Shown piece after piece: positions 2,909 through 43,711 of a DNA stretch of 48,425 nt. The notes under the pieces are model-generated. The model saw nothing but the letters and a program-made list of their open reading frames with translations. It was not told where the DNA came from and ran no database searches. Numbering within the stretch: the stretch's first letter is position 1; each line of letters begins with the position of its first letter. The position numbers and the translations under genes are program-made. This DNA comes from Geminicoccaceae bacterium (lineage in GTDB: Bacteria > Pseudomonadota > Alphaproteobacteria > Geminicoccales > Geminicoccaceae). Location of the stretch: positions 1-48,425 of the forward strand of contig JAABSG010000001.1 of assembly GCA_011390475.1 (NCBI GenBank). The letters run 5' to 3'.

Positions 2909-3748
2909 TTAGTGACCGGCCAATGGCCGCGTCTTGGCGAGGTGGTCGAAGGCCATCAGGTCTTCGAGCAATCGGCCGAGCTTGTCGAGCGGAACCATGT
3001 TGGGGCCATCGCTCATCGCATTGTCGGGGTCGTCGTGAGTCTCGATGAAAACGGCGGCGACGCCGATCGAGACGGCGGCGCGCGCCAGGACCGGGACGTA
3101 TTCGCGCTGGCCACCGCTCTTGCCGCCGAGGCCGCCCGGCTGCTGGACCGAGTGGGTGGCATCGAAGACCACGGGCCAGCCGGTGGCGGCCAGTTGCGGC
3201 AGCGCCCGCATGTCGGAAACCAGCGTGTTGTAGCCGAAGGAGGCGCCGCGCTCGGTCACCAGCACCCGCTTCGCGCCGAATTCCTCGAGCTTCGCGGTCA
3301 CGTTGGCCATGTCCCAGGGTGCCAGGAACTGGCCCTTCTTGACGTTGACCACGGCCCCGGTCGCGGCCGCCGCCCGCAGGAGATCGGTCTGGCGGCAGAG
3401 AAAGGCCGGGATCTGCAGGATGTCGACGACCTCGGCCACCGGGCCGCACTGGCCGCTTTCGTGGATGTCGGTGAGGACGGGGCAGCCGAAGCGCTCCTTG
3501 ACCTCGCCGAGAATGGCCACGCCTTCGCTGAGGCCGACGCCCCGGGCACTGCCGGCGCTGGTGCGGTTGGCCTTGTCGAACGAGCTCTTGAAGACGAAGG
3601 GCAGACCGAGCCCGCTGGTCAGCGCCACGAGGCGCTCGGCCATCATCAAGGCGTGCTCGCGACTTTCGATGGCACAAGGTCCGGCGATCAGCACCATCGG
3701 GCGGTCCTGCGCGAAGACGACCGGGCCGACCTCGACTTGGTGGGGCAT
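2909..3748 (-). CDS. kdsA: 3-deoxy-8-phosphooctulonate synthase
   Basis: 279 aa. [22 protein letters not shown] and [13 protein letters not shown] are typical of KdsA. Confidence 0.93.
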
Positions 3749-8786: not shown

Positions 8787-11456
8787 TCAGCGTGGCGCAG
8801 GTCGGGGACGGCCCGGCCATTCGGCGAAGAGCAGATTCTGCAGCCGCTCGAGCCGCGCCTGGGCGGTGGTCAGCTCGGCGTCGAGGTCCTTGATCCGCTC
8901 GAGCGCGACCACGAGCTCGGCATCGCTCATCGTCTCTCGACCGGTCACCGCGGCCGGGGGTGACGAGTTTACCCCGACACTGCTTTCCGGTGCGGTCTCC
9001 GGGCCCTCGAATCCGATTTCGGGGCCGAGCTCGGCGGCGAGCCGTGCGGTGGCCGCGAGTTCTTCCTCGAGCGCGGCGATCCGTTCGTTGGCTGCCCGCA
9101 GGGCCGCGGTCGCCGCCCCTTCGCTACCGTCGCCATTGCCGCCCGAAACCGTGGCCGCGGCCGGGCTGTCGTCGGCCTCGCGCTGCTGATTGACGGCGAC
9201 CAGCGACTCGTTCTGCCGCTCGAGCGCGGCAATCTCGGCTTCCAGCCCCTCGATCGTGCTGCGCAACCCGGCCAGTTCGGTAGCGTGCGCGGCGTTTTGC
9301 GCCTCCAGCGCATCGTTGGTCGCCTTGGTCAGGGTGGCCATGTCTTGGCGCAGCTCGGCGATCTCCGCCTCTGCCGTCGCGCTCGCGGCGAGGGCCGCAT
9401 CGCGCTCGGCGGCAATCGCGGCATCGCCCCGCGCCGCCCGTTCGGCCAGCCGCGTGGCATCGGTCGCGAGTCGGGTTGCCGCGTCCGCGGCAGCCTCGGC
9501 GGCGGCGAGCTCGGCCTCCAGCTCCTTGGTGCGGCTTTCCAGCGCTGTGAGCGCCGCCGCCGTCACTTCGGCACCGAGACCACCGGCGCCCCCCACATCC
9601 TCGGGCGAGCGCTCGGCCATGGCGGCGAGCTCGTCCGCTAGCCTCGCCCGCTCGGCCAGGGCCGTGGTCAGCGCCACCTGGTCGGCGGCACGGGCCGAGG
9701 TGAGCCGGGCGAGCTCCAGCTCCAACTCGACCACCACGTCGTCTGCCGCACTCGCGGCATTGGCGAGGCTGTCGCGTTCGGCCTCGAGGGCATCGCGCTC
9801 GGCCACGAGGCTGTCGCGGTCGGTACGGGCCATGGCGTCGCCGCTGGCGAGCCGGCCTTCGAGCACTTCGAGGCTGGCTTGCGCGCTGGCAGCGGCCGCT
9901 GCCAGCTGATCGCGTTCGCGGGCGAGCTCGGCCTCGCGCGCCGCGAATTGGGCCTGCAGCTCGGCCACGGTCGCCTGGGTGGCGCCCGCGGCCGCAGCGA
10001 GCTCGTCGCGCTCGGCTTGCAGAACGGCGAGGTTCGCTTGCGCTGTCTCGGCCGCCGCGGCCAGGCGGTCCCGCTCCGCGACGAGCTCGGCTTCGCGCGC
10101 GGTGGACTGGGCCTCGAGCTCGGCCAGGGTCGTCTCGATAGCGCTGGCCCGTGCTGCCAGCGCGTCGCGCTCGGCGGCCAGTTCGTCACGCTCGACCATG
10201 AGGCTGTCGCGCTCGGCCGCGAGTTCGCTGCTGGCGCTCTCGGCAGCGGCCACGGCCGCCCTCAGGGTGCCGATCTCGGCGGCCAGGCTGTCCTCGGCGG
10301 CCCGCGCGGTCAGGGCCTCCTCGGCGAGCCGATCACGCTCGGCCTCTAGGGTCTGGGCGCGCTCGACGGCTTGGGCGCGGGCGGTCTCGATGTCGCGCAC
10401 GGCAACGGCCAGGGTGTCGCGCTCGACCAGCAGGATCTCGCGCTCGGCCAGGCTGGCGGCGAGCTCACGATCGATGCCCTGGAGTTGATCCTGCAGCGCG
10501 GCGGCCTCGACGGCGCGGTCGTCGGCCTCGGCGAGGCGGGCGAGGAGGTCGTCGCGGGCCAAGGTCGCCATGGTCTGGACCTCGTCGAGCTCGCTCTCGA
10601 GGCCCTCGAGTTGCTCTTCGAGCGCCGCGTTCTCCGCGGCCAACGTGTCCCGCTCGGCAGCCAGCCGGGCAAACCGCTCGGCGACCTCGGGGTCGTCGGC
10701 GGCGAGCAGGGCCTCGCTACCTTCCGCCGCACGGTCGGTCTCCAGCTCGATGACCCGCGCCAGGGCACGATCGAGTTGGGCTCGCGCACCATCGCGTTCG
10801 CGCTCGACCAGGCGCAGCTCCATGCCGAGCGACGCGAGCTCGCCGGGGCCCACCGTCTCCAGCGTGGCGCGGGGCTGGCCGGTCTCGTCGATCAGCCCGT
10901 CGACATCCCCGGTCATCCCGAGCTCGTCCTCGAGCACGGCGATCCGCGACTGGCCGAGGGCGAGCAGGGACTCTGCCTGCCGCCGGCCCTCCTCGGCGTT
11001 CTCCAGCTCGAGCCGCAGCGCCTCGAGCTCGCGTTCGGCCCGTTCGGCGGCCGCAGCACGCGCGGCCGTCGCATCGGCGAGTTCGGCGCGCAGCGCCGTG
11101 AGCTCGGCCCGCCAGGGCTCGGCATCGCCGGCCGGCTCGCGCGCAACCGTCAGTGCATCACCTGGCCCGACCACCGCCGGGGTTCCGCCCTCGCCAGCCA
11201 CCGGCAGCCCACCGGCCTCCAGCGCGGCCAAGCGTGCGCCCTGTTCCTCGTACAGTCGATAACCGTAGTAACCGGCGGCCAACAGGCCGAGGCTCACCAG
11301 GACGCTCAGGGTGAAGCCCGAGGCCAGAAGAATTTGCTTGCCGCGGCTCAATGAAACGATTCGACCGCCGCCGGGGCCACGTTCGTAGAACTGCCGGTCG
11401 ACGAACAACTCGCTCCAGCGCCGCCGGCCCCGCGGTCGCTCGTCCGCCATGCCCAC
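8787..11456 (-). CDS. large membrane-anchored coiled-coil protein, function unknown
   Basis: 889-aa ORF (GTG at 11456, or ATG at 11450 with GGAGAG upstream). Basic N-terminus, one TM segment (ILLASGFTLSVLVSLGLLAAGYYGY), then about 800 aa of A/E/R/L-rich heptad-like sequence with recurring ERDxL units and near-duplicated modules. No recognisable catalytic domain. Confidence 0.75.
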   Translation of the reverse strand: MGMADERPRGRRRWSELFVDRQFYERGPGGGRIVSLSRGKQILLASGFTLSVLVSLGLLAAGYYGYRLYEEQGARLAALEAGGLPVAGEGGTPAVVGPGDALTVAREPAGDAEPWRAELTALRAELADATAARAAAAERAERELEALRLELENAEEGRRQAESLLALGQSRIAVLEDELGMTGDVDGLIDETGQPRATLETVGPGELASLGMELRLVERERDGARAQLDRALARVIELETDRAAEGSEALLAADDPEVAERFARLAAERDTLAAENAALEEQLEGLESELDEVQTMATLARDDLLARLAEADDRAVEAAALQDQLQGIDRELAASLAEREILLVERDTLAVAVRDIETARAQAVERAQTLEAERDRLAEEALTARAAEDSLAAEIGTLRAAVAAAESASSELAAERDSLMVERDELAAERDALAARASAIETTLAELEAQSTAREAELVAERDRLAAAAETAQANLAVLQAERDELAAAAGATQATVAELQAQFAAREAELARERDQLAAAAASAQASLEVLEGRLASGDAMARTDRDSLVAERDALEAERDSLANAASAADDVVVELELELARLTSARAADQVALTTALAERARLADELAAMAERSPEDVGGAGGLGAEVTAAALTALESRTKELEAELAAAEAAADAATRLATDATRLAERAARGDAAIAAERDAALAASATAEAEIAELRQDMATLTKATNDALEAQNAAHATELAGLRSTIEGLEAEIAALERQNESLVAVNQQREADDSPAAATVSGGNGDGSEGAATAALRAANERIAALEEELAATARLAAELGPEIGFEGPETAPESSVGVNSSPPAAVTGRETMSDAELVVALERIKDLDAELTTAQARLERLQNLLFAEWPGRPRPAPR

Positions 11457-11689: not shown

Positions 11690-12721
11690 TCAGGCCTGGG
11701 TGCCGACGAACTGGCTCGGGGTCAGGGCCTCGAGGGCCGGAGAAACGACCGTCGCCTCGCGGCTGGCGCCGCATTGGCGCAGCAATCGGGCGAGCAAGGC
11801 GTGGCTTGCGCCGTGCGTGGTCAACTCGACCATCGGCAGGCCGCCGAGCAGCGCCAAGGCGCCCAGCGCCAAGAGGTTGGCGTGGCGGGCAGGCTCGTCG
11901 GCAAAGCGCAGCCCGCCCGGGTTCCGTGGTCCGGAGTCGTCCAGGATCAGCGTGTTCTCGAGCGAGACGCCACGCATCAGCCCGCGTTCCTGGGCGGCTT
12001 CGAGAGCAGCCGTGGTCAGCGGCTGCCGGGCAGCGGCGAGTTCGTGGCGCAGCGCCTCGGGGGAGAGTGCTACGGCGTGCCGGGCGGGGCCGAAGGCGCC
12101 TTCGGGTGTTGCGCCGATGTCGGTCACCAGCCGACCCTGGCTCGCCGGGCCGATGCGGGCGGCGAGCGCGCCGCGGCAAAGGGCGATCGCCGTGGGCATG
12201 GGGCAGGGCCGGCGCGGTGCGGTCTGGCGCGTCGCACCGGCGCATTCGATGAGGAAGACGAAGGGTTGGGCGCTGCCGTCCATGGCCGGCAGCTCCGGAC
12301 CACTCACCTCGATCAGGGCGTTGTCGATGCCCGTCATGGCCAGCGCCGCGGTGACGTGCTCGACACCGACGATCCTGGTGCCGTCGCCATCGGCGAGGAT
12401 CAGGGCGTGGTCGGCGATGATCAGGTGTTCGGGACAGGCCAGCAAAGTGGCGCTGCCCGGGCGATCGCTGCGCTTGAAGCGGACGCCGCTACCGGCCGGG
12501 GCCGGCTGCAGGGTCAGGCCGACGCGCACGCCGGAATGGCGGCCGACGCCGACGCAGCTGATGGCGTGCGCGAGCGTCCGCTGGGCCGTGCCGGCGTCGA
12601 TCCCGGTTGTCCGGGTTTCAGCGGCCGCCCCAGCGTCAGCCTCGCGCCGGTTGCTGGCGGCCTCGCGCGCGCCGCCGCCAGCAGTGGCTGCCAACGTCAA
12701 CGGTGAACTCGTATCGTGCAT
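11690..12721 (-). CDS. lpxC: UDP-3-O-acyl-N-acetylglucosamine deacetylase homolog (LpxC-like, divergent C-terminal half)
   Basis: ATG at 12721 (GGAG 9 nt upstream) gives 343 aa. The N-terminal half matches LpxC (QRTL, GVGRHSG, QPAPAGSGVRFKR, GVEHVTAALAMTGIDN, PAMDGSAQPF). Canonical position downstream of ftsZ. C-terminal catalytic motifs are altered; see findings. Confidence 0.8.
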   Translation of the reverse strand: MHDTSSPLTLAATAGGGAREAASNRREADAGAAAETRTTGIDAGTAQRTLAHAISCVGVGRHSGVRVGLTLQPAPAGSGVRFKRSDRPGSATLLACPEHLIIADHALILADGDGTRIVGVEHVTAALAMTGIDNALIEVSGPELPAMDGSAQPFVFLIECAGATRQTAPRRPCPMPTAIALCRGALAARIGPASQGRLVTDIGATPEGAFGPARHAVALSPEALRHELAAARQPLTTAALEAAQERGLMRGVSLENTLILDDSGPRNPGGLRFADEPARHANLLALGALALLGGLPMVELTTHGASHALLARLLRQCGASREATVVSPALEALTPSQFVGTQA

Positions 12722-12844
12722 AGCGCCCGCTCCTGATGCCTTTGGCGAGGCGGCACGTTTCGTGCCGCGGCCGATCGTCAGCGGTGCCTGTCCCCAGTAC
12801 CTTTTTCGCAACGCAGCCTGGCGCCGTCGCTGGGCACCATCTGG

Positions 12845-12963: not shown

Positions 12964-14529
12964 TTAGCTGTCGACGCGTTCCTTGCGCAAGAAAGCGGGG
13001 ATGTCGCCGAGCTCATCCTGGCCGGGCGTAGCGTTTCGGCCACGCTCGCTGCCCGCTTGGGGCGCATGCTGCTGCGGCTGGGCGGGCCCGTCGTCGGCCA
13101 TGGCCGGCTCGCGGCGCATTTGCGGCTGCATCGGACGCTCGTACTCGGCATCGCCGCCACCGGCGCCCAGACCGTGCGTGCGGGCAAAGCCGCGCATCCG
13201 CTGGAAGATGCCGAGCCCGCTCTGCCGCTCCTCGGCTTGCTGGCCGCGCGGCACCGCATAGCCGGTGGCAGCACCCTGCGCCCCTTGCGCCGGATCGCCC
13301 CGGTAGCCGGTGGTCTCGGCTGGCGGCGGGACGAAGTGCGGGTATTGGCCCTGACCGGCCTCGGCCGGTGCCCCTTGCCGCCCGTCGGTCGCGGCCCGGA
13401 GATGCAGGGTCGGGTTGGCCTCCGCTGCCTTGGCCGCCGGCTTTTGCACCTGCGGGTAGGGTTGCGGGCGATGCGCGGTGTGCGGGAACCAGCCGCCGGC
13501 CTGGGCCGGTTGGGTCTCGCTCCCGGCGGCTTCCGCCGCCGCTGCCTGACGCGAGCGCTCGGCCTGGGTCTCGATACCCGTCGCGACCACGGAGACGCGC
13601 AGGCCACCCTGGATCGATTCGTCGTAGGTCGAGCCGAAGATGATGTTGGCCTCGGGGTCGACCTCCTCGCGGATGCGGTTGGCGGCGGCGTCGATCTCGA
13701 AGAGGGTGATGTCGGAGCCGCCGGTGATGTTGATCAGCACGCCGCGGGCGCCGCGCATCGAGACCTCGTCGAGCAGCGGGTTGGAGATCGCGGCCTCGGC
13801 GGCGTCGATCGCCCGCCGTTCGCCCTCGGCCTCACCGGTGCCCATCATCGCCTTGCCCATCTCGGACATGACGGTCCTGATATCGGCGAAGTCGAGATTG
13901 ATCATGCCGGGCATGACCATGAGGTCGGTCACACCACGGACACCCATGTGCAGCACCTGATCGGCCATCTGGAAGGCCTCGGCGAAGGTGGTGCGCTCGT
14001 TGGCCAGGCGGAAGAGGTTCTGGTTGGGGATGACGATCAGCGTGTCGACGAAGCTCTGCAGCTCGGTCAGGCCGCCCTCGGCGAGGCGCATGCGGTGGGC
14101 GCCTTCGAAGTGGAAGGGCTTGGTCACGACGCCGACGGTGAGGATCCCCATGTCGCGCACGGCCCGCGCGATGACGGGGGCGGCGCCGGTGCCGGTGCCG
14201 CCGCCCATGCCGGCGGTGATGAAGACCATGTTCGAGCCCTGCAGGAGATCGAGGATCTCGTCGAGGCTCTCTTCGGCCGAGGCACGGCCGACTTCCGGTC
14301 TCGCCCCCGCGCCCAAGCCGTGGGTGATGGCGTTGCCGAGCTGGATCTTGCGATCGGTCAGGCAGTTGGCCAGAGCCTGCGCATCGGTGTTGCAGGCGAC
14401 GAACTCGACCCCTTCGAGGTGCGAGGTGATCATGTTGTTGACGGCATTGCCGCCGGCGCCACCGACGCCCACGACCGAGATTCGGGGCTTCATTTCATGC
14501 GTGACGGGCATGCTCAGGCTGATCGTCAT
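12964..14529 (-). CDS. ftsZ: cell division protein FtsZ
   Basis: 521 aa. [20 protein letters not shown] and [13 protein letters not shown] tubulin signature, a long disordered linker, and the conserved C-terminal peptide DIPAFLRK. Confidence 0.98.
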
Positions 14530-35831: not shown

Positions 35832-36647
35832 CTATTCGCGCCTGACGTCGCGGAGCTCTTCGCGGAGCAGCGCGATCTCCTGGCGGAGGGCTTCGATCTC
35901 GGAGGCGCCGGCGACTTCGCTTTCCGGGGCCTCGGCTTCCTGGCCGATGAAGAAGGTGGCGAGGCTGGCGGTGATGTAGCCGAAGACGGCGAGACCGTAG
36001 ACCGAGAGCAGGAGGGTGAGCATGCGGCCCTCGGGCGATTCGGGCCAGAAATCGGAGCCCACCGTAGCGATCAGCATGGCCGTCCACCAGAGCGCATCGG
36101 CATAGCCGGTAAAGCCACCACCGACCTCGGTCGCAGGCTCGAAGGTCATCATCCCGGCGGCACCCAGGACAATGACCATCGCCGTGGTCAAGAGCACATA
36201 GCCGAGGCCGCGCCGGTCGAAGCTCCGGCGCAAAGCGTTGATGCCGCGATTGGCCGTGCCGACGATGCGCACCAGACGCAGCCCGCGGGCCAGGCGCAAG
36301 AAGCGTAGCGCATTGAGAAAGCGGAGCGCGGGGGCGGCCAAGGCCACGATGGTGACGACGTTGTTGCGCAAGAACCGTGGCTTGCGCGGCGCGAGGCTGA
36401 AGCGCAGCAGGAACTCGGCGATGAAGACGATCCAGATGGCCGTGCCGAAGAACTGGAAGATGCCGGACGTGGTCCAGACCAGCTCGACCAGCACCAGCAC
36501 CAGCCAAATCAGGGAGAGCACGATCATCGGCGCCTCCAGCCATGCCTCGAGCTGCTGCAGCGTCAGCCACCGCTCCCGCTCCGCCTCCGGCTCGTCCGAT
36601 CCGCTCTCGTCACGATCCCGCATTCGTCCCTCCCCCCGCATCGTCAC
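35832..36647 (-). CDS. voltage-sensor-containing ion transport protein (Kv-like, non-canonical pore)
   Basis: 271 aa. S4-like [15 protein letters not shown]. Pore helix plus filter [22 protein letters not shown]6, then a C-terminal coiled coil [17 protein letters not shown]. Confidence 0.8.
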
Positions 36648-38100: not shown

Positions 38101-38156
38101 GTGGGGCGTGGGGAGGTGTCGCCTCCCCACATCTTCTTGTTTTTATTGGCTTTTTT
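38101..38156 (+). repeat. repeat-family copy A: hairpin plus T-rich tail, oriented as a plus-strand terminator
   Basis: GTGGGGAGG-tgtcg-CCTCCCCAC (38108-38130) followed by ATCTTCTTGTTTTTATTGGCTTTTTT. Lies immediately after the mcd stop but in the opposite orientation. Confidence 0.5.
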
Positions 38157-39828
38157 AGCTTTCCAGCAGCCGCCTGGCGATGACCTGGGCCTGGATCTCG
38201 GCGGCGCCTTCGAAGATGTTGAGGATGCGGGCGTCGCAGAGCACGCGGCTGATCGGATACTCGATCGCGTAGCCGTTGCCACCGTGGATCTGGAGCGCGT
38301 TGTCGGCGGTGGCCCAGGCGACTTGGGCGGCAAGCAGTTTGGCGAGGCCGGCCTCCAGGTCGCAGCGCCGCTCGGCGTCCTTTTCGCGGGCCGAGAAGAG
38401 GGTGAGCTGGCGGGCGATCTGCACCTCGACCGCCATCCAGGCGAGCTTGCCGGAAACACGGGGGAAGGCCGTGAGCGGCTTTTTGAACTGGATGCGGTCC
38501 TTGGCGTAGGCGAGGCCGAGCTCGAGGGCGTTTCTGGCCACGCCGACGGCGCGGGCGGCGGTCTGGATCCGCGCCCCTTCGAAGGTGGCCATGAGCTGCT
38601 TGAAGCCTTGGCCTTCGACGCCGCCCAGGAGATTGTCGCCGGCGACCCTGAAGCCATCGAAGCCCAGGGTGTATTCCTTCATGCCGCGATAACCCAGGAC
38701 CTCGATTTCGCCGCCGCTGAGGCCGTCGACCGGGAAGGGATCGGCGTCGGTGCCGCGGGGTTTTTCCGCGAGCAGCATGGAGAGGCCCTTGTAGCCGGCC
38801 TCCTCGGGGCGGGTGCGGCAGAGCACGGTCATGAGATCGGCTCGGGCGGCGTGGGTGATCCAGGTCTTGGCGCCGGTGATCGTCCAGCCGTCCGCATCGC
38901 GGACCGCCCGGGTTTTCAGGGACGCCAGGTCTGAGCCGGTGTCGGGTTCGGTGAAGACGGCTGTCGGGATGATCTCGCCGGACGCGACCTTCGGCAGGAA
39001 GCGCTCTTGCTGCTCGGCGGTGCCGCCGAGGCGGATCAGCTCGCCCGCGATTTCCGAGCGGGTGGAGAGCGAGCCCACGCCGATATAGCCGCGGGAGAGT
39101 TCCTCGGTCACGACGCACATCGCCACCTTGCCCAGGCCGAGGCCGCCGAATTCTTCGGGCAGGGTCAGGCCGAACACGCCGAGCTCGGCCAGTTCCTCGA
39201 TCAGCGGCAGCGGAATGAGCTCGTCGCGCTCGTGCCAGCCATGGGCGTGGGGGATCACCTTGTCGTCGCTGAAGCGTTGGAACTGTTCCCTGATCATGTC
39301 CAGGGTTTCGTCGCCGAGCGCCCACTGGCCGAAATCGCCCTCGTCGATGAGCTCGGCGATGCGGGCGCGGGTCACTGCCGTATTGCCGCCTTGAATGAGC
39401 GAGCGGACGGCGGGGTCGCTGGTGAAGGCCTGGATGGCGGCCTCACCCAGATAGAGATCGCGGGGGCGCACGACCTCGACCTGGCTCATCGGGATGCCGC
39501 CCTGGATGCGCGCCAGATACTCGCCGAAGGCGGCCTCGAGCATCAGCCGTTCGAGCTCACCGAGGCTGCCCTCGCCGTCCAGCCGTTCGGCCCAGCCGCG
39601 CATCTGGCGCAGGGCCTGACGGTAGACCTCGAGCCAGGCGAGGCCGTGCGCCGCGAACTGCTCCTGGTCGAGCAGGGCTGCATCGATGCGGCCGGTGGGG
39701 GCGACGACGCGGCGGACGGCGTCCTTGGCCGCATCGAACAGCTGGTCGGTGGCCGCGAGGGCGGCCGCCGTCTGCGTCCAGATATCGCCCGAGGGCGCGG
39801 TCTCGACGGTTGATAGGGCGATGGCCAA
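38155..39828 (-). CDS. mcd: (2S)-methylsuccinyl-CoA dehydrogenase (acyl-CoA dehydrogenase with about 170-aa N-terminal extension)
   Basis: 557 aa. The acyl-CoA dehydrogenase core (TEPDTGSDLASLKT, GAKTWITHA, QIHGGNGYAIEYPISR) is preceded by the long N-terminal extension characteristic of Mcd. Sits directly downstream of ccr. TTG start 3 nt after the ccr stop, with GGAGGA upstream. Confidence 0.8.
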   Translation of the reverse strand: MAIALSTVETAPSGDIWTQTAAALAATDQLFDAAKDAVRRVVAPTGRIDAALLDQEQFAAHGLAWLEVYRQALRQMRGWAERLDGEGSLGELERLMLEAAFGEYLARIQGGIPMSQVEVVRPRDLYLGEAAIQAFTSDPAVRSLIQGGNTAVTRARIAELIDEGDFGQWALGDETLDMIREQFQRFSDDKVIPHAHGWHERDELIPLPLIEELAELGVFGLTLPEEFGGLGLGKVAMCVVTEELSRGYIGVGSLSTRSEIAGELIRLGGTAEQQERFLPKVASGEIIPTAVFTEPDTGSDLASLKTRAVRDADGWTITGAKTWITHAARADLMTVLCRTRPEEAGYKGLSMLLAEKPRGTDADPFPVDGLSGGEIEVLGYRGMKEYTLGFDGFRVAGDNLLGGVEGQGFKQLMATFEGARIQTAARAVGVARNALELGLAYAKDRIQFKKPLTAFPRVSGKLAWMAVEVQIARQLTLFSAREKDAERRCDLEAGLAKLLAAQVAWATADNALQIHGGNGYAIEYPISRVLCDARILNIFEGAAEIQAQVIARRLLES

Positions 39829-39831
39829 GGC

Positions 39832-41133
39832 TCAGTCCTCCACCGCTTCCTCGAAGGTGCGCATGCCGGGGCGCTTCGCACTGACCAGCACCGCCATGTT
39901 GCCGGGCTTGTGCTGGTTCTTGAGCATCTTCATGTGGGCGCGGGGAATGTCGGCCCAGCTGAAGACCTCGGACATGCAGGGGTCGACCTGGCGGTCGAGG
40001 ACAAACTTGTTCGCCGCCGAGGCCTGTTTCAAGTTGGCGAAGTGGCTGCCCTGCAGGCGCTTTTGCCGCATCCAGAGGTAGCGGGCGTCGACGGTGAGCT
40101 TGTAGCCGGTGGTGCCGGCACAGATCACCACCATGCCGCCCCGCTTGCAGACCAGGGCGGAGACCGGGAACGTCGAAGCACCCGGGTGCTCGAAGACCAT
40201 GTCGACGTCGTTGCCCTTGCCGGTGATGTCCCAGATCGCCTTGCCGAACTTGCGCGCTTCCTTGACCCAGGCGTTGTAGGCCTCGGTGTCCATGGGATCG
40301 GGCATCTCGCCCCAGCAATTGAAGTCCTTGCGGTTGATCGCCCCCTTGGCCCCGAGCGACAGCACGAACTCGCGCTTGTCCTCCTCGGAGATCACGGCAA
40401 TCGCATTGGCGCCCGAGGCCGCGATCATCTGGATCGCCATGGACCCCAGGCCGCCGGCCCCGCCCCAGACCAGGACGTTGTCGCCGGGCTTGAGGATGTG
40501 CGGCTGGTGACCGAAGAGCATGCGATAGGCGGTGGCCAGGACCAGCGTGTAGCAGGCAGCCTCTTCCCAGGTCAGATGCTTCGGCCGAGGCATCAGCTGG
40601 CGGCTCTGCACCTTGCAGAACTGAGCGAAGGAGCCGTCGGTGGTCTCGTAGCCCCAGATGCGCTGGGAGGGCGAGTTCATCGGATCGCCGCCGTTGCACT
40701 CCTCGTCGTCACCGTCGTCCTGGTTGCAGTGGATGACGACCTCGTCGCCGACCTTCCAGCGCTTGACCTTCGAGCCCACGGCCCAGACGATGCCGGCCGC
40801 ATCGGAGCCCGCCACGTGGTAGGGTTGCTTGTGGACGTCCATGGGCGAGAGCGGGACGCCCAAGGCGGCCCAGACGCCATTATAGTTGACGCCCGCCGCC
40901 ATCACCAGGACCAGCACCTCGTCGTCGCCGATCGCGGGCGTCGGGACCACCTCTTCCAGCATCGAGGTCAGGGGCTCGCCGTGGCGCTCTTTTCTGATGG
41001 CCCAGGCGTACATATTGGCCGGCACGTGGCCCAAGGGCGGGATCTCGCCCACGTCGTAGAGGTCCTTGACGGGGCCGGTGGGGGTCGGCGTCGTCTCCGG
41101 CTTCATCGGAATGACCTGGGCTGTGGACGTCAT
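39832..41133 (-). CDS. ccr: crotonyl-CoA carboxylase/reductase
   Basis: From ATG at 41133, 433 aa: KDLYDVGEIPPLGHVPANMYAWAIRKERHGEP, VMAAGVNYNGVWA, VIHCNQDDGDDEECNGGDPM, GYETTDGSFAQF and HKPGNMAVLV match Ccr closely. The ORF stays open for a further 134 codons upstream; see the HTH feature and findings. Confidence 0.93.
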   Translation of the reverse strand: MTSTAQVIPMKPETTPTPTGPVKDLYDVGEIPPLGHVPANMYAWAIRKERHGEPLTSMLEEVVPTPAIGDDEVLVLVMAAGVNYNGVWAALGVPLSPMDVHKQPYHVAGSDAAGIVWAVGSKVKRWKVGDEVVIHCNQDDGDDEECNGGDPMNSPSQRIWGYETTDGSFAQFCKVQSRQLMPRPKHLTWEEAACYTLVLATAYRMLFGHQPHILKPGDNVLVWGGAGGLGSMAIQMIAASGANAIAVISEEDKREFVLSLGAKGAINRKDFNCWGEMPDPMDTEAYNAWVKEARKFGKAIWDITGKGNDVDMVFEHPGASTFPVSALVCKRGGMVVICAGTTGYKLTVDARYLWMRQKRLQGSHFANLKQASAANKFVLDRQVDPCMSEVFSWADIPRAHMKMLKNQHKPGNMAVLVSAKRPGMRTFEEAVED

Positions 41134-41454
41134 GGCGGCGACTTTCTCTTTAACGGGTGACGATTGGGCGGCTGACGGTTGCATCTCGTGGCGGGCGGTG
41201 GCCTGTGGCAGCGGCCGGCCATGGGTGCCGGTGGCGAGGGATTCGAAGAACTCGACGGGCGAGAGGTCGATGCCCTCCCGCCTCGCGATGGCGAGCAGCT
41301 CTTCTTGGCGCTTGGCCGGGATGGCACCACGACGGACCCAGCCACTGACAGCGGTCTGCCAGATGCCCAAGAGCTCGGCGACGCGTTGCTGCGAGCCGAA
41401 CTTCTTGATGATGGTCTCGACTTTGTTCGGCTGCACGGCGGAGGTCTGCGGCAT
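41134..41454 (-). CDS. Cro/YdaS-like helix-turn-helix segment, in frame with ccr and lacking its own stop codon
   Basis: ATG at 41454: MPQTSAVQPNKVETIIKKFGSQQRVAELLGIWQTAVSGWVRRGAIPAKRQEELLAIARREGIDLSPVEFF. GC3-rich codon usage runs through ...ARHEM. The last 16 codons before the ccr ATG are GC3-poor. No stop codon separates this segment from ccr. Confidence 0.6.
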
Positions 41455-41524
41455 GGCATTTTGGTCCGTTGCTCTTGCCGGGCTCTCGAGGTGGGCCCGG
41501 TCGGCTCCCGGTGTTGAACATTTG

Positions 41525-41566
41525 CTGCGATGCAAGACAAGTGTTGGAGCGCTTGCTGCATCGCAG
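41525..41566. promoter_or_regulatory. inverted repeat in the ccr-ecm divergent spacer
   Basis: CTGCGATGCAAG-N15-CTTGC(TGC)ATCGCAG. The 12-bp arms are interrupted by a 3-nt insertion in the right arm. Confidence 0.3.
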
Positions 41567-41576
41567 TAGGCTGCTT

Positions 41577-41606
41577 TTGACAGCCATCGATGTCAACACC
41601 ATAAAT
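41577..41606 (+). promoter_or_regulatory. candidate ecm promoter overlapping a 20-bp near-palindrome
   Basis: TTGACA (41577-41582), 18-nt spacer, ATAAAT (41601-41606). TTGACAGCCATCGATGTCAA is palindromic at 8 of 10 pairs and places TTGACA on both strands. Confidence 0.4.
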
Positions 41607-41710
41607 GCTTTGACGGCGGCGCAGCAAGAATGTTAGCGCACGACGCACCGGATTGCGTGCCCTTTCGGCGGCTAGCAATGTGTTGAAGCAACAGAGAAGA
41701 GGTGTTGGAG

Positions 41711-43711
41711 ATGGTCATGAGTGGTGCTGCCAACACTTTACGTGATAAGCCCTGGCTGTTTCGGACCTATGCCGGGCACAGCTCGGCCGCGGCCTCGAAC
41801 ACGCTCTTTCGCACCAATCTGGAGCGCGGCCAGACCGGGCTTTCGGTGGCCTTCGATCTGCCGACGCAGACCGGCTACGACAGCGACCACGCTCTGGCTA
41901 AAGGCGAGGTCGGCAAGGTCGGGGTGCCCGTTACCTCGCTCGACGACATGGAAGTGCTGTTCCGGGACATCCCGTTGGAGCGCATGAACACCTCGATGAC
42001 AATCAACGCCACCGCGCCCTGGCTGCTGGCGCTCTATATTGCCGCGGCCGAGCGGCAGGGTGTGGATCGCAAGGTGCTGCAGGGCACGGTGCAGAACGAC
42101 ATCATCAAGGAGTATTTGAGCCGCGGCACGTACATCTTCCCCCCTGCCCCATCGCTCCGCCTGATCGCCGATGTGGTGGCCTTCACGTATAAAGAAGTGC
42201 CGAAGTGGAATCCGACCAACGTCTGCTCCTACCATCTGCAGGAGGCGGGTGCGACGCCGGTGCAGGAGCTGGCTTATGCGCTGGCCACGGCCATTGCCGT
42301 GCTCGATGCGATCAAGGCGGGCGGGCAGGTGCCGGACGAGGACTTTCCGACCGTGGTCGGGCGGATCAGCTTTTTCGTCAATGCCGGCATCAAGTTCGTG
42401 ACCGAGCTCGCCAAGATGCGGGCCTTCGTCGATCTCTGGGACGCCATCGCCCGTGACCGCTACGGGGTCGAGGACGAAAAGCTCCGGCGCTTTCGCTACG
42501 GCGTGCAGGTGAATTCGCTGGGCCTCACCGAGCAGCAGCCGGAGAACAACGTCTATCGCATTCTCTTGGAGACCCTGGCCGTCACGCTCTCGAAAAAGGC
42601 CCGCGCCCGGGCCGTGCAACTTCCCGCCTGGAACGAGGCCCTGGGGCTGCCGCGACCGTGGGATCAGCAATGGTCGTTGCGCTTGCAGCAGATCCTGGCG
42701 CTCGAGACGGACCTGCTCGAGTACGGCGACATCTTCGACGGCAGCCATGTCATGGATGCCAAGGTCGAGGCGTTGAAGGCTGAGGCTACGGCCGAGCTCG
42801 CGCGGATCGATGCGCTGGGCGGGGCCCTCGCCGCGGTCGACTCCGGCTACATGAAGAGCCGGCTTGTCGAGAGCAGTGCGCTGCGCGTGCAAGCGATCGC
42901 GTCCGGGGCGCAGAAGGTCGTGGGGGTCAATTGCTACACCGAGACCGCCCCCTCGCCGCTCACCACGGGCGAGGATGGCGGGTTCATGACGGTCGATCCC
43001 AAGGCGGAGGCGGAGCAGATCGAGCGGCTCCAGGCGCACCGGGCGCGGCGCGACGGGGCTGCGGCAGCAGCGGCCCTTGTCGAACTCGAGGCCGCGGCCA
43101 GGGAAAGCCGCAACGTCATGCCGGCCTCGATATCTTGCGCCCATGCCGGGGTCACCACGGGCGAATGGGCCGAGACGCTGCGCCGCGTGTTCGGCGAGTA
43201 TCGCGCCCCCACCGGCATTGCCGGAGCCGACACCAAGGGTGACGACGACGCTTTGGCGCCGGTGCGCGCCAAGGTCGATGCGCTGGCGGCGGCAACGGGC
43301 CGGCGGCTGAAGATCCTGGTCGGCAAGCCCGGGCTCGACGGGCATTCCAACGGGGCCGAGCAGATCGCGGTCGCGGCCAGGGATTCCGGCATGGAGGTGG
43401 TCTACGAGGGTATCCGGCTGTCACCGGCCCGGATCGTCGGCACGGCGCTCGAGGAGGCGGTGCACGTGGTCGGGCTCTCGATCCTCTCGGGCTCGCATCT
43501 GCCCTTGGTCAAGGAGGTGCTGGAGCGCATGCGCCAGACCGGCATCGGCGACATCCCGGTCGTCGTCGGCGGCATCATCCCGCCCGACGACAAACAGGCG
43601 CTCTTGGCCATGGGCGTCGCCCGCGTCTACACGCCCAAGGACTTCGCGATCGCTCGGATCATGGACGACATCGCGGACATCGTGACGGCGGCCGAGAGCA
43701 AGGCTGCTTAA
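41711..43711 (+). CDS. ecm: ethylmalonyl-CoA mutase (B12-dependent acyl-CoA mutase family, fused catalytic and B12-binding domains)
   Basis: About 666 aa. KPWLFRTYAGHSSA, GLSVAFDLPTQTGYDSDH, MTINATAPWLLALYIAAAERQG and the C-terminal B12 domain GKPGLDGHSNGAEQIA. Divergent from ccr, as with meaA/ecm in Rhodobacter. The start could be GTG 41702, ATG 41711 or ATG 41717. Confidence 0.88.
   Translation: MVMSGAANTLRDKPWLFRTYAGHSSAAASNTLFRTNLERGQTGLSVAFDLPTQTGYDSDHALAKGEVGKVGVPVTSLDDMEVLFRDIPLERMNTSMTINATAPWLLALYIAAAERQGVDRKVLQGTVQNDIIKEYLSRGTYIFPPAPSLRLIADVVAFTYKEVPKWNPTNVCSYHLQEAGATPVQELAYALATAIAVLDAIKAGGQVPDEDFPTVVGRISFFVNAGIKFVTELAKMRAFVDLWDAIARDRYGVEDEKLRRFRYGVQVNSLGLTEQQPENNVYRILLETLAVTLSKKARARAVQLPAWNEALGLPRPWDQQWSLRLQQILALETDLLEYGDIFDGSHVMDAKVEALKAEATAELARIDALGGALAAVDSGYMKSRLVESSALRVQAIASGAQKVVGVNCYTETAPSPLTTGEDGGFMTVDPKAEAEQIERLQAHRARRDGAAAAAALVELEAAARESRNVMPASISCAHAGVTTGEWAETLRRVFGEYRAPTGIAGADTKGDDDALAPVRAKVDALAAATGRRLKILVGKPGLDGHSNGAEQIAVAARDSGMEVVYEGIRLSPARIVGTALEEAVHVVGLSILSGSHLPLVKEVLERMRQTGIGDIPVVVGGIIPPDDKQALLAMGVARVYTPKDFAIARIMDDIADIVTAAESKAA

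Follow-up and report, generated by a model that had tools for sequence, protein, structure and literature searches.

The UDP-3-O-acyl-N-acetylglucosamine (GlcNAc) deacetylase LpxC (EC 3.5.1.108) catalyses the committed step in the synthesis of lipid A. Almost all Gram-negative bacteria depend on this enzyme for survival, and it is an important target of antibiotics. In Escherichia coli the protein is bound by LapB and degraded by FtsH via its C-terminal tail. Here an lpxC-like gene is described that lies directly downstream of ftsZ in a metagenome-assembled genome (MAG) of a Geminicoccaceae bacterium (assembly GCA_011390475.1). The whole stretch of DNA that was analysed, 48,425 nucleotides (nt) of contig JAABSG010000001.1, is called the window below. 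The encoded protein is probably a pseudoenzyme derived from LpxC, repurposed for a non-catalytic job and kept under selection. We favour such a selected non-catalytic derivative because the gene occupies the position of the ortholog, its frame is intact, the ratio of nonsynonymous to synonymous substitutions (dN/dS) is 0.20–0.34, and the modelled fold is complete, whereas a zinc ligand and most residues for catalysis and substrate binding are lost.

Pseudoenzymes with a role in the envelope or in division are known from Alphaproteobacteria. FzlA has a glutathione-S-transferase fold, binds FtsZ in Caulobacter and resembles the window protein as an enzyme fold without catalysis that is kept for such a role; however, the fold is unrelated, and the window protein is tied to FtsZ by gene adjacency only. 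The Sphingomonadales are a lineage without lipid A. Furthermore, lipid A is dispensable in Caulobacter cells that lack fur and possess anionic sphingolipids (PMC9393093). A direct complex of MurA and LpxC was described for Pseudomonas, Legionella and a Magnetospirillum species (Hummels et al. 2023, PMC9995270); high interaction scores were predicted for a subset of Rhodospirillales, and a catalytically dead MurA still does its regulatory job (PMC9995270). In this system a protein-binding surface of LpxC couples the synthesis of peptidoglycan and lipopolysaccharide (LPS), which makes it a model for a dead LpxC, but the LpxC there is an active, regulated enzyme, and murA lies outside the window. 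The nearest published parallel, as far as gene location and taxonomy are concerned, is formed by the orphan lpxC2 paralogs of monoderm Bacillota, for which a remnant state or a different function has been discussed (PMC11448272). Like the window protein, these are LpxC homologs in organisms for which it is doubtful that the lipid A pathway works. In contrast to the window gene, which is the ftsZ-linked ortholog in a diderm alphaproteobacterium, they are paralogs outside the main LPS cluster and belong to another phylum. Full-text literature searches for pseudo-, inactive or paralogous LpxC returned no description of a catalytically dead LpxC in Proteobacteria.

With canonical LpxC the window protein shares homology over the full length, the two-domain fold, the slot downstream of ftsZ, the residues E78, H238 and H19, the MDGSA motif and a disordered C-terminal tail (residue numbers follow E. 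coli LpxC, and published work on LpxC is the source for the roles of the positions). It matches PF03331 with 197 bits (E = 4.7e-58) over profile positions 1–265 of 268, the LpxC chains of the PDB match it at E ~1e-37 (HMMER), and its identity to the enzymes of E. coli and Pseudomonas aeruginosa is 34%. The score for TIGR00325, the NCBI equivalog model, is 177.4 bits and thus under the cut-off of 187.25.

The register of the catalytic part was taken from HMMER alignments to the P. aeruginosa and E. coli LpxC chains of the PDB and from a MAFFT alignment with E. coli LpxC and 120 homologs. Against P. aeruginosa LpxC, HMMER pairs 'elaaarqplt' with 'evsRARTFGF', 'rfadeparhanllalgal' with 'RYEDEFVKHKILDAIGDL' and 'gashal' with 'KSGHAL'. 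In the MAFFT alignment E78, H79, H238 and H265 are kept as E121, H122, H280 and H307, whereas T191 is replaced by Q233, F192 by P234, K239 by A281, D242 by L284 and D246 by A288. Further losses are G193 (Leu), G210 (Val), C63 (Ala), T76 (Gly), W282, F161 and Q171. The gene and the positions in question are located as follows:

11690–12721, minus strand: coding sequence of the lpxC-like protein, 343 amino acids (aa), from the list of open reading frames; stop codon at 11690–11692.
12356–12361, minus strand: E121-H122, corresponding to the general base E78 and the zinc ligand H79, both retained here.
12017–12025, minus strand: Q233-P234-L235 in place of T191-F192-G193, the catalytic Thr and substrate loop (HMMER and MAFFT).
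11966–11968, minus strand: V252 in place of G210 of Insert II, in the hydrophobic acyl-chain passage (alignment).
11858–11884, minus strand: H280-A281-N-L-L284-A-L-G-A288 in place of HKxxDxxxD, with H238 kept, K239 and D246 each replaced by Ala and the zinc ligand D242 by Leu.
11801–11803, minus strand: H307, corresponding to H265 (general acid or oxyanion stabilisation), retained here.

The zinc triad H79/H238/D242 is incomplete, with Leu in place of D242. In the catalytic set E78 is kept and D246 and T191 have become Ala and Gln, and at the substrate and acyl-passage positions the protein carries K239A, F192P, G193L and G210V. A preliminary description of this DNA had arrived at the same five replacements (T191Q, F192P, K239A, D242L, D246A) and the same four retained residues by aligning the protein by hand to E. 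coli LpxC; since HMMER and MAFFT agree, that alignment was in register. It had also stated that no alternative frame restores HKxxD, and indeed the motif H[KR]xxDxxG[DE] is absent from all reading frames of the window. The centre, described as unusually rich in Ala, Arg and Pro, proved to contain 25.6% A, 10.5% R, 10.5% P and 0% K in residues 160–245, compared with averages of 10.5% A, 3.8% P and 3.2% K in canonical alphaproteobacterial LpxC.

These substitutions are not confined to the window. In a database of 5.8 billion proteins, clustered at 90% identity, about 36 clusters with 54–100% identity to the window protein were found, all of them with the same core losses, which answers a check on close relatives proposed in the preliminary description. 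In this clade K239 has become A, G or M, D242 L, V or M, D246 A, S or G, and T191 Q, R, H, L or Y. At the H79 position several members have Q, L, N or Y, and at the H265 position some have Y, P, F or C, so that neither residue, though present in the window protein, is conserved; the sole invariant member of the zinc triad is H238. Val stands at the G210 position in 33 of 34 members, the F161 and Q171 positions vary, and the former active-site positions are among the most variable of the clade. E78, H238 and H19 are invariant, as are several clade-specific residues including N282, H215 and R61.

Beyond the clade the identity falls sharply to 47% or less, mostly to canonical sequences. A library of 1.84 billion representatives, clustered at 50% identity, contains the clade as a single cluster (522 bits), and the next match scores 296 bits. 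lpxC was furthermore extracted from 80 GTDB species representatives, 6 of which belong to the clade; these are uncultured MAGs labelled Geminicoccaceae, Rhodospirillales or Alphaproteobacteria. Their genomes group together in a tree of FtsA, FtsZ and Ddl, and the clade of Geminicoccaceae-related MAGs is monophyletic. Among the 74 alphaproteobacterial species outside the clade T191, H238, D242, D246 and H265 are invariant, except for a T191G exchange in one locus (L008); at position 239, 72 species have Lys and 2 have Arg. In 72 of the 74 every residue that was tabulated is unchanged. Conservation in 72 canonical alphaproteobacterial sequences amounts to 100% for T191, D242 and D246, 99% for K239, 97% for F192 and G210, 92% for G193 and at least 90% each for F161 and Q171.

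A comparison of an AlphaFold model with LpxC structures, similar to one with inhibitor structures proposed in the preliminary description, revealed a complete LpxC fold with a TM score of about 0.87. The mean predicted local distance difference test score (pLDDT) of the AlphaFold2 model is 87.2, it reaches 93–98 per 10-residue block over residues 51–320, and in the core it exceeds 95. Foldseek aligns the model with E. coli and P. aeruginosa LpxC of the PDB at E ~1e-32, with target-normalised TM scores of 0.85–0.91 and a root-mean-square deviation of 1.8–2.3 Å over about 279 columns; the target-normalised TM score to Aquifex LpxC is 0.94. Three regions are distinguished:

11753–12589, minus strand: complete two-domain LpxC fold with Insert I and Insert II, residues 45–323 (AlphaFold2 and Foldseek).
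12590–12721, minus strand: N-terminal extension, residues 1–44, of low complexity and predicted to be disordered (pLDDT mostly below 50 in residues 1–33).
11693–11752, minus strand: disordered C-terminal tail, residues 324–343, ending in ...GTQA (pLDDT below 50).

Canonical LpxC begins at the QRTL motif, and the disordered N-terminal extension of about 44 aa is thus an addition of the window protein. The length of this linker varies in the clade, and a start with MH[DE]T is common to much of it. At the other end most clade members terminate in xQA or xPA; many canonical alphaproteobacterial LpxCs carry a similar small non-polar xxA tail. By analogy with the C-terminus of E. coli LpxC the tail may act as a degradation signal.

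The canonical ftsZ-lpxC position named in the preliminary description applies, as the gene follows ftsZ directly. kdsA, for Kdo-8-phosphate synthase (Kdo, 3-deoxy-D-manno-oct-2-ulosonic acid), had been noted in the window as well and is intact:

12964–14529, minus strand: ftsZ (TIGR00065, 407 bits), immediately upstream of the lpxC-like gene.
12730–12734, minus strand: Shine-Dalgarno-like AGGAG, 8 nt 5' of the ATG at 12721, as read in the sequence.
2909–3748, minus strand: kdsA (NF003543, 425 bits against a cut-off of 242), intact.

The order ddl-ftsQ-ftsA-ftsZ-lpxC-like is found in the window and in the clade loci, and in most other alphaproteobacterial loci examined canonical lpxC fills the same ftsZ-adjacent slot, which we take to be the ancestral position of lpxC. 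Sharing this slot with canonical lpxC, the gene represents its positional ortholog and not an added paralog. A scan of its flanks for promoters and terminators gave nothing above chance. Tistrella mobilis KA081020-065 (L090, NC_017958.1, 235519–266364) carries ddl, ftsA, ftsZ and canonical lpxC on a replicon of 1.13 Mb, which is listed as a plasmid. Since it bears essential division and cell-wall genes, this replicon is a chromid, and the megaplasmid lpxC, considered as a second copy of the family, was rejected as such: it is the canonical ftsZ-linked gene.

The reading frame is open in the window, in the 6 GTDB species, in metagenome assemblies and in every member seen, and the G+C content at third codon positions (GC3) of the gene, 0.81, is typical for coding sequence of the window. 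For the closer pairs the Nei-Gojobori method gave the dN/dS of 0.20–0.34 mentioned above; in these pairs ftsA, ddl and pyrG have lower values of 0.09–0.21. All are crude estimates, as the synonymous sites are GC3-biased and partly saturated. Long stretches are invariant in the clade (PELPAMDGSAQPFVFLIECAG, RGLMRGVS and DEPARHANLLAL). Domain II, which formerly housed the catalytic helix and Insert II, is 67–70% identical within the clade compared with 31–38% to canonical LpxC; being conserved in the clade and far from canonical LpxC at the same time, it points to a new constraint and not to free drift. Independent assemblies of several metagenomes from sediment, lakes and ice contain the window sequence with 1–2 substitutions and no indels, and in the two best DNA metagenome runs there is one substitution each inside the lpxC-like gene, again without indels. 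As a weak sign of expression, a metatranscriptome yielded a contig of 262 nt that covers the 5' end (12467–12728) with a depth of 3.6, about a tenth to a third of the 12–39 for ftsZ. The gene is a living gene under purifying selection and not a pseudogene.

Over the part of ftsZ that encodes the GTPase (13700–14360) the metagenome depth spikes to 1198 from a baseline of about 64, likely due to contigs of related organisms that map to this conserved region; depth across the window is therefore to be read with caution.

Taken as a whole, the ftsZ-linked lpxC of one Geminicoccaceae-related clade would have turned non-catalytic with the LpxC fold remaining complete. The zinc site, the H265-D246 pair, the oxyanion Thr191, K239, F192 and the glycines of the acyl passage have been lost or have become free to vary, and judged by these residues the protein would no longer be a zinc-dependent UDP-3-O-acyl-GlcNAc deacetylase. 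For its role the most likely proposal is that one protein-protein contact of LpxC may have been retained, so that the protein would act as a regulator or decoy that coordinates envelope synthesis; by analogy, candidate partners are MurA, or a protease or adaptor recognising the disordered C-terminal tail, and a division protein is a further idea. Deacetylation of lipid A might be performed by some other protein of the genome.

Several points speak against this interpretation. The dN of the gene is 3–4 times that of its neighbours ftsA, ddl and pyrG, and the composition is shifted towards Ala, Arg and Pro; a constraint weaker than that on the neighbours would also fit a slow path to loss. The invariant E78, H238 and H19 would allow a different chemistry at the old site. 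The transcript evidence is one short contig of low depth from one metatranscriptome, where DNA carry-over is possible. Finally, the regulatory or decoy role is deduced by analogy, and the deacetylation by another protein is a proposal.

If catalysis was lost and the gene was nevertheless kept at its ancestral locus throughout the clade, a second, selected function of LpxC is implied, which fits the recent finding of regulatory complexes with MurA and LapB. The clade would then be a natural separation-of-function variant for finding this second role, and it raises the question of how these bacteria perform the deacetylation step or do without it. In any case the protein should not be annotated as UDP-3-O-acyl-GlcNAc deacetylase. 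Annotation at the Pfam level calls it LpxC, and pathway reconstructions would therefore wrongly score the lipid A pathway as complete.

Whether a canonical LpxC exists elsewhere in these bacteria bears on the choice between explanations. The window contains a single copy and no second LpxC homolog. The closest canonical LpxCs in the database of 5.8 billion proteins are 47% identical or less, and those examined are ftsZ-linked orthologs of other lineages (nearest are P0039, P0051, P0274 and the P0288/L079 group), which lends no support to a recent duplication. When the canonical LpxC of the sister lineage served as the query, the search revealed no canonical group of the size of the clade that could represent an out-paralog. 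A distant or horizontally acquired copy is possible. The loci fetched gave no match to E. coli LpxA, FabZ, LpxD or KdsB by tblastn. That the bacteria of the clade have no canonical LpxC at all is a tentative proposition that we tend to doubt. Should it be true, they would either join the Sphingomonadales as a second lineage of Alphaproteobacteria that builds its outer membrane without lipid A, in which LpxC is retained for moonlighting only, or make lipid A by means of a deacetylase unrelated to LpxC. The independent erosion of LpxC in neighbouring Geminicoccaceae would then point to a family-wide change in the building or regulation of the outer membrane.

Such eroded homologs (P0038/L008, P0037/L081, P0113/L083, P0042, P0069, P0128 and P0131) are found at the same position and have also lost T191, F192 and K239, some of them D246, H265 or E78/H79 in addition. 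They differ from the window protein in that all keep the zinc ligand D242, and they carry different sets of substitutions; the clade of the window is the most extreme case. The ftsZ-linked homolog of L083 (10001–10837) shows E78G, H79R, K239A and H265A together with deletions, that of L081 (363–1259) E78D, K239A, D246A and H265A, and that of L008 (6710–7510), which is partly eroded, T191G, F192H and K239R. Because these lineages sit beside lineages with canonical LpxC in the housekeeping-gene tree of FtsA, FtsZ and Ddl, the erosion looks independent and seems to have occurred several times. This repetition suggests that something in the family makes LpxC catalysis dispensable; candidates are a distant second copy, another deacetylase and an envelope that dispenses with lipid A.

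This third possibility leads to an alternative that we regard as unlikely, namely that the lineage has no lipid A, as the Sphingomonadales or Caulobacter lacking fur, and that the gene is a remnant en route to loss or a moonlighting protein, no other deacetylase being present. The eroded site, the evolution faster than that of the neighbours, the drift in composition, the independent erosion in L083, L081 and partly L008 and the failure of the protein-database searches to find a close canonical paralog would all be in line with it, and a case of an alphaproteobacterium that can do without lipid A has been published (PMC9393093). However, kdsA is intact and strongly constrained, with 85–87% identity in the clade loci and a dN/dS of 0.17–0.29, which is hard to explain without an acceptor of Kdo such as lipid A. 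bamD was found intact in the clade loci L006 and L088, although it indicates an outer membrane only and not LPS. Therefore the bacteria of the clade have an outer membrane, Kdo and probably the LPS core are still made, and LPS synthesis is probable. Simple decay of the gene is contradicted by the frame, intact in at least 36 diverged clusters, by the dN/dS of 0.20–0.34 and by the long invariant motifs.

The preliminary description had left the choice between a pseudo-LpxC of regulatory or structural function, accompanied by an active paralog elsewhere, and an unusual active-site solution. The pseudo-LpxC gained from the clade-wide loss, the fold and the selection. The unusual active site lost ground: H79 and H265 vary in the clade and D242 is always replaced by a hydrophobic residue, which argues against a rewired metal site, and the acyl tunnel is changed. 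It is accordingly quite improbable that the protein is still a lipid A deacetylase, or another hydrolase, with a site rebuilt from E78, H238 and H19 together with N282, H215 and R61. The invariance of these residues, the intact kdsA, which makes some deacetylase probably necessary, and the lack of a close canonical paralog in the protein-database searches could be cited in its favour. Nevertheless, only one of the three zinc ligands is conserved, H265 and D246 are exchanged as listed above, and the substrate loop and acyl tunnel are replaced, in part by bulkier residues (G193L, G210V) and with F161 and Q171 varying. The former active-site positions count among the most variable of the clade, and the score lies under the TIGR00325 threshold.

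An artefact, i.e. an error of sequencing or assembly, a chimera among the MAG contigs or a normal lpxC that was misaligned or frame-shifted, might be considered for a window that is a single MAG contig, but can practically be dismissed, since the same sequence was assembled independently in several metagenomes without indels, dozens of related sequences (ENA, JGI, NCBI, Logan) carry the same substitutions, two independent alignment methods agree and no alternative frame restores the motif.

A non-catalytic LpxC derivative under selection is thus the explanation we retain. Directly downstream of its gene an 889-aa protein without a Pfam domain is encoded (8787–11456, minus strand), which consists of an N-terminal segment resembling a membrane anchor and a very long coiled coil of Ala, Glu, Arg and Leu. 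The gene is fast-evolving (dN/dS 0.4–0.8) and present in every clade locus with enough downstream sequence (L001–L004, L006, L088). In metagenome contigs joints that skip 210, 211, 1001 or 1023 nt occur within it, which could be length variants or an assembly collapse of repeats. A search for homologs of the N-terminus of the protein returned none. As a partner co-acquired with the dead LpxC the coiled-coil protein was rejected: in L091 (11055–12770), a related lineage, the gene adjoins canonical lpxC, and it is therefore not specific to the dead form.

Two further observations concern distant parts of the window. Between leuB and a set of acyl-CoA genes a 271-aa protein with the voltage-gated-type ion-transport domains PF00520 and PF07885 is encoded (35832–36647, minus strand), for which no NCBIfam match was obtained. 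The acyl-CoA genes themselves (38155–43711) resemble those of the ethylmalonyl-CoA pathway. They comprise an acyl-CoA dehydrogenase (38155–39828) with an N-terminal extension of about 170 aa, a crotonyl-CoA carboxylase/reductase (39832–41535) and a protein of the methylmalonyl-CoA mutase family (41702–43711), possibly an ethylmalonyl-CoA mutase. In the longest open reading frame of the crotonyl-CoA carboxylase/reductase, whose start codon is putative, a 'carph-isopro' domain (residues 39–92) precedes the catalytic part.

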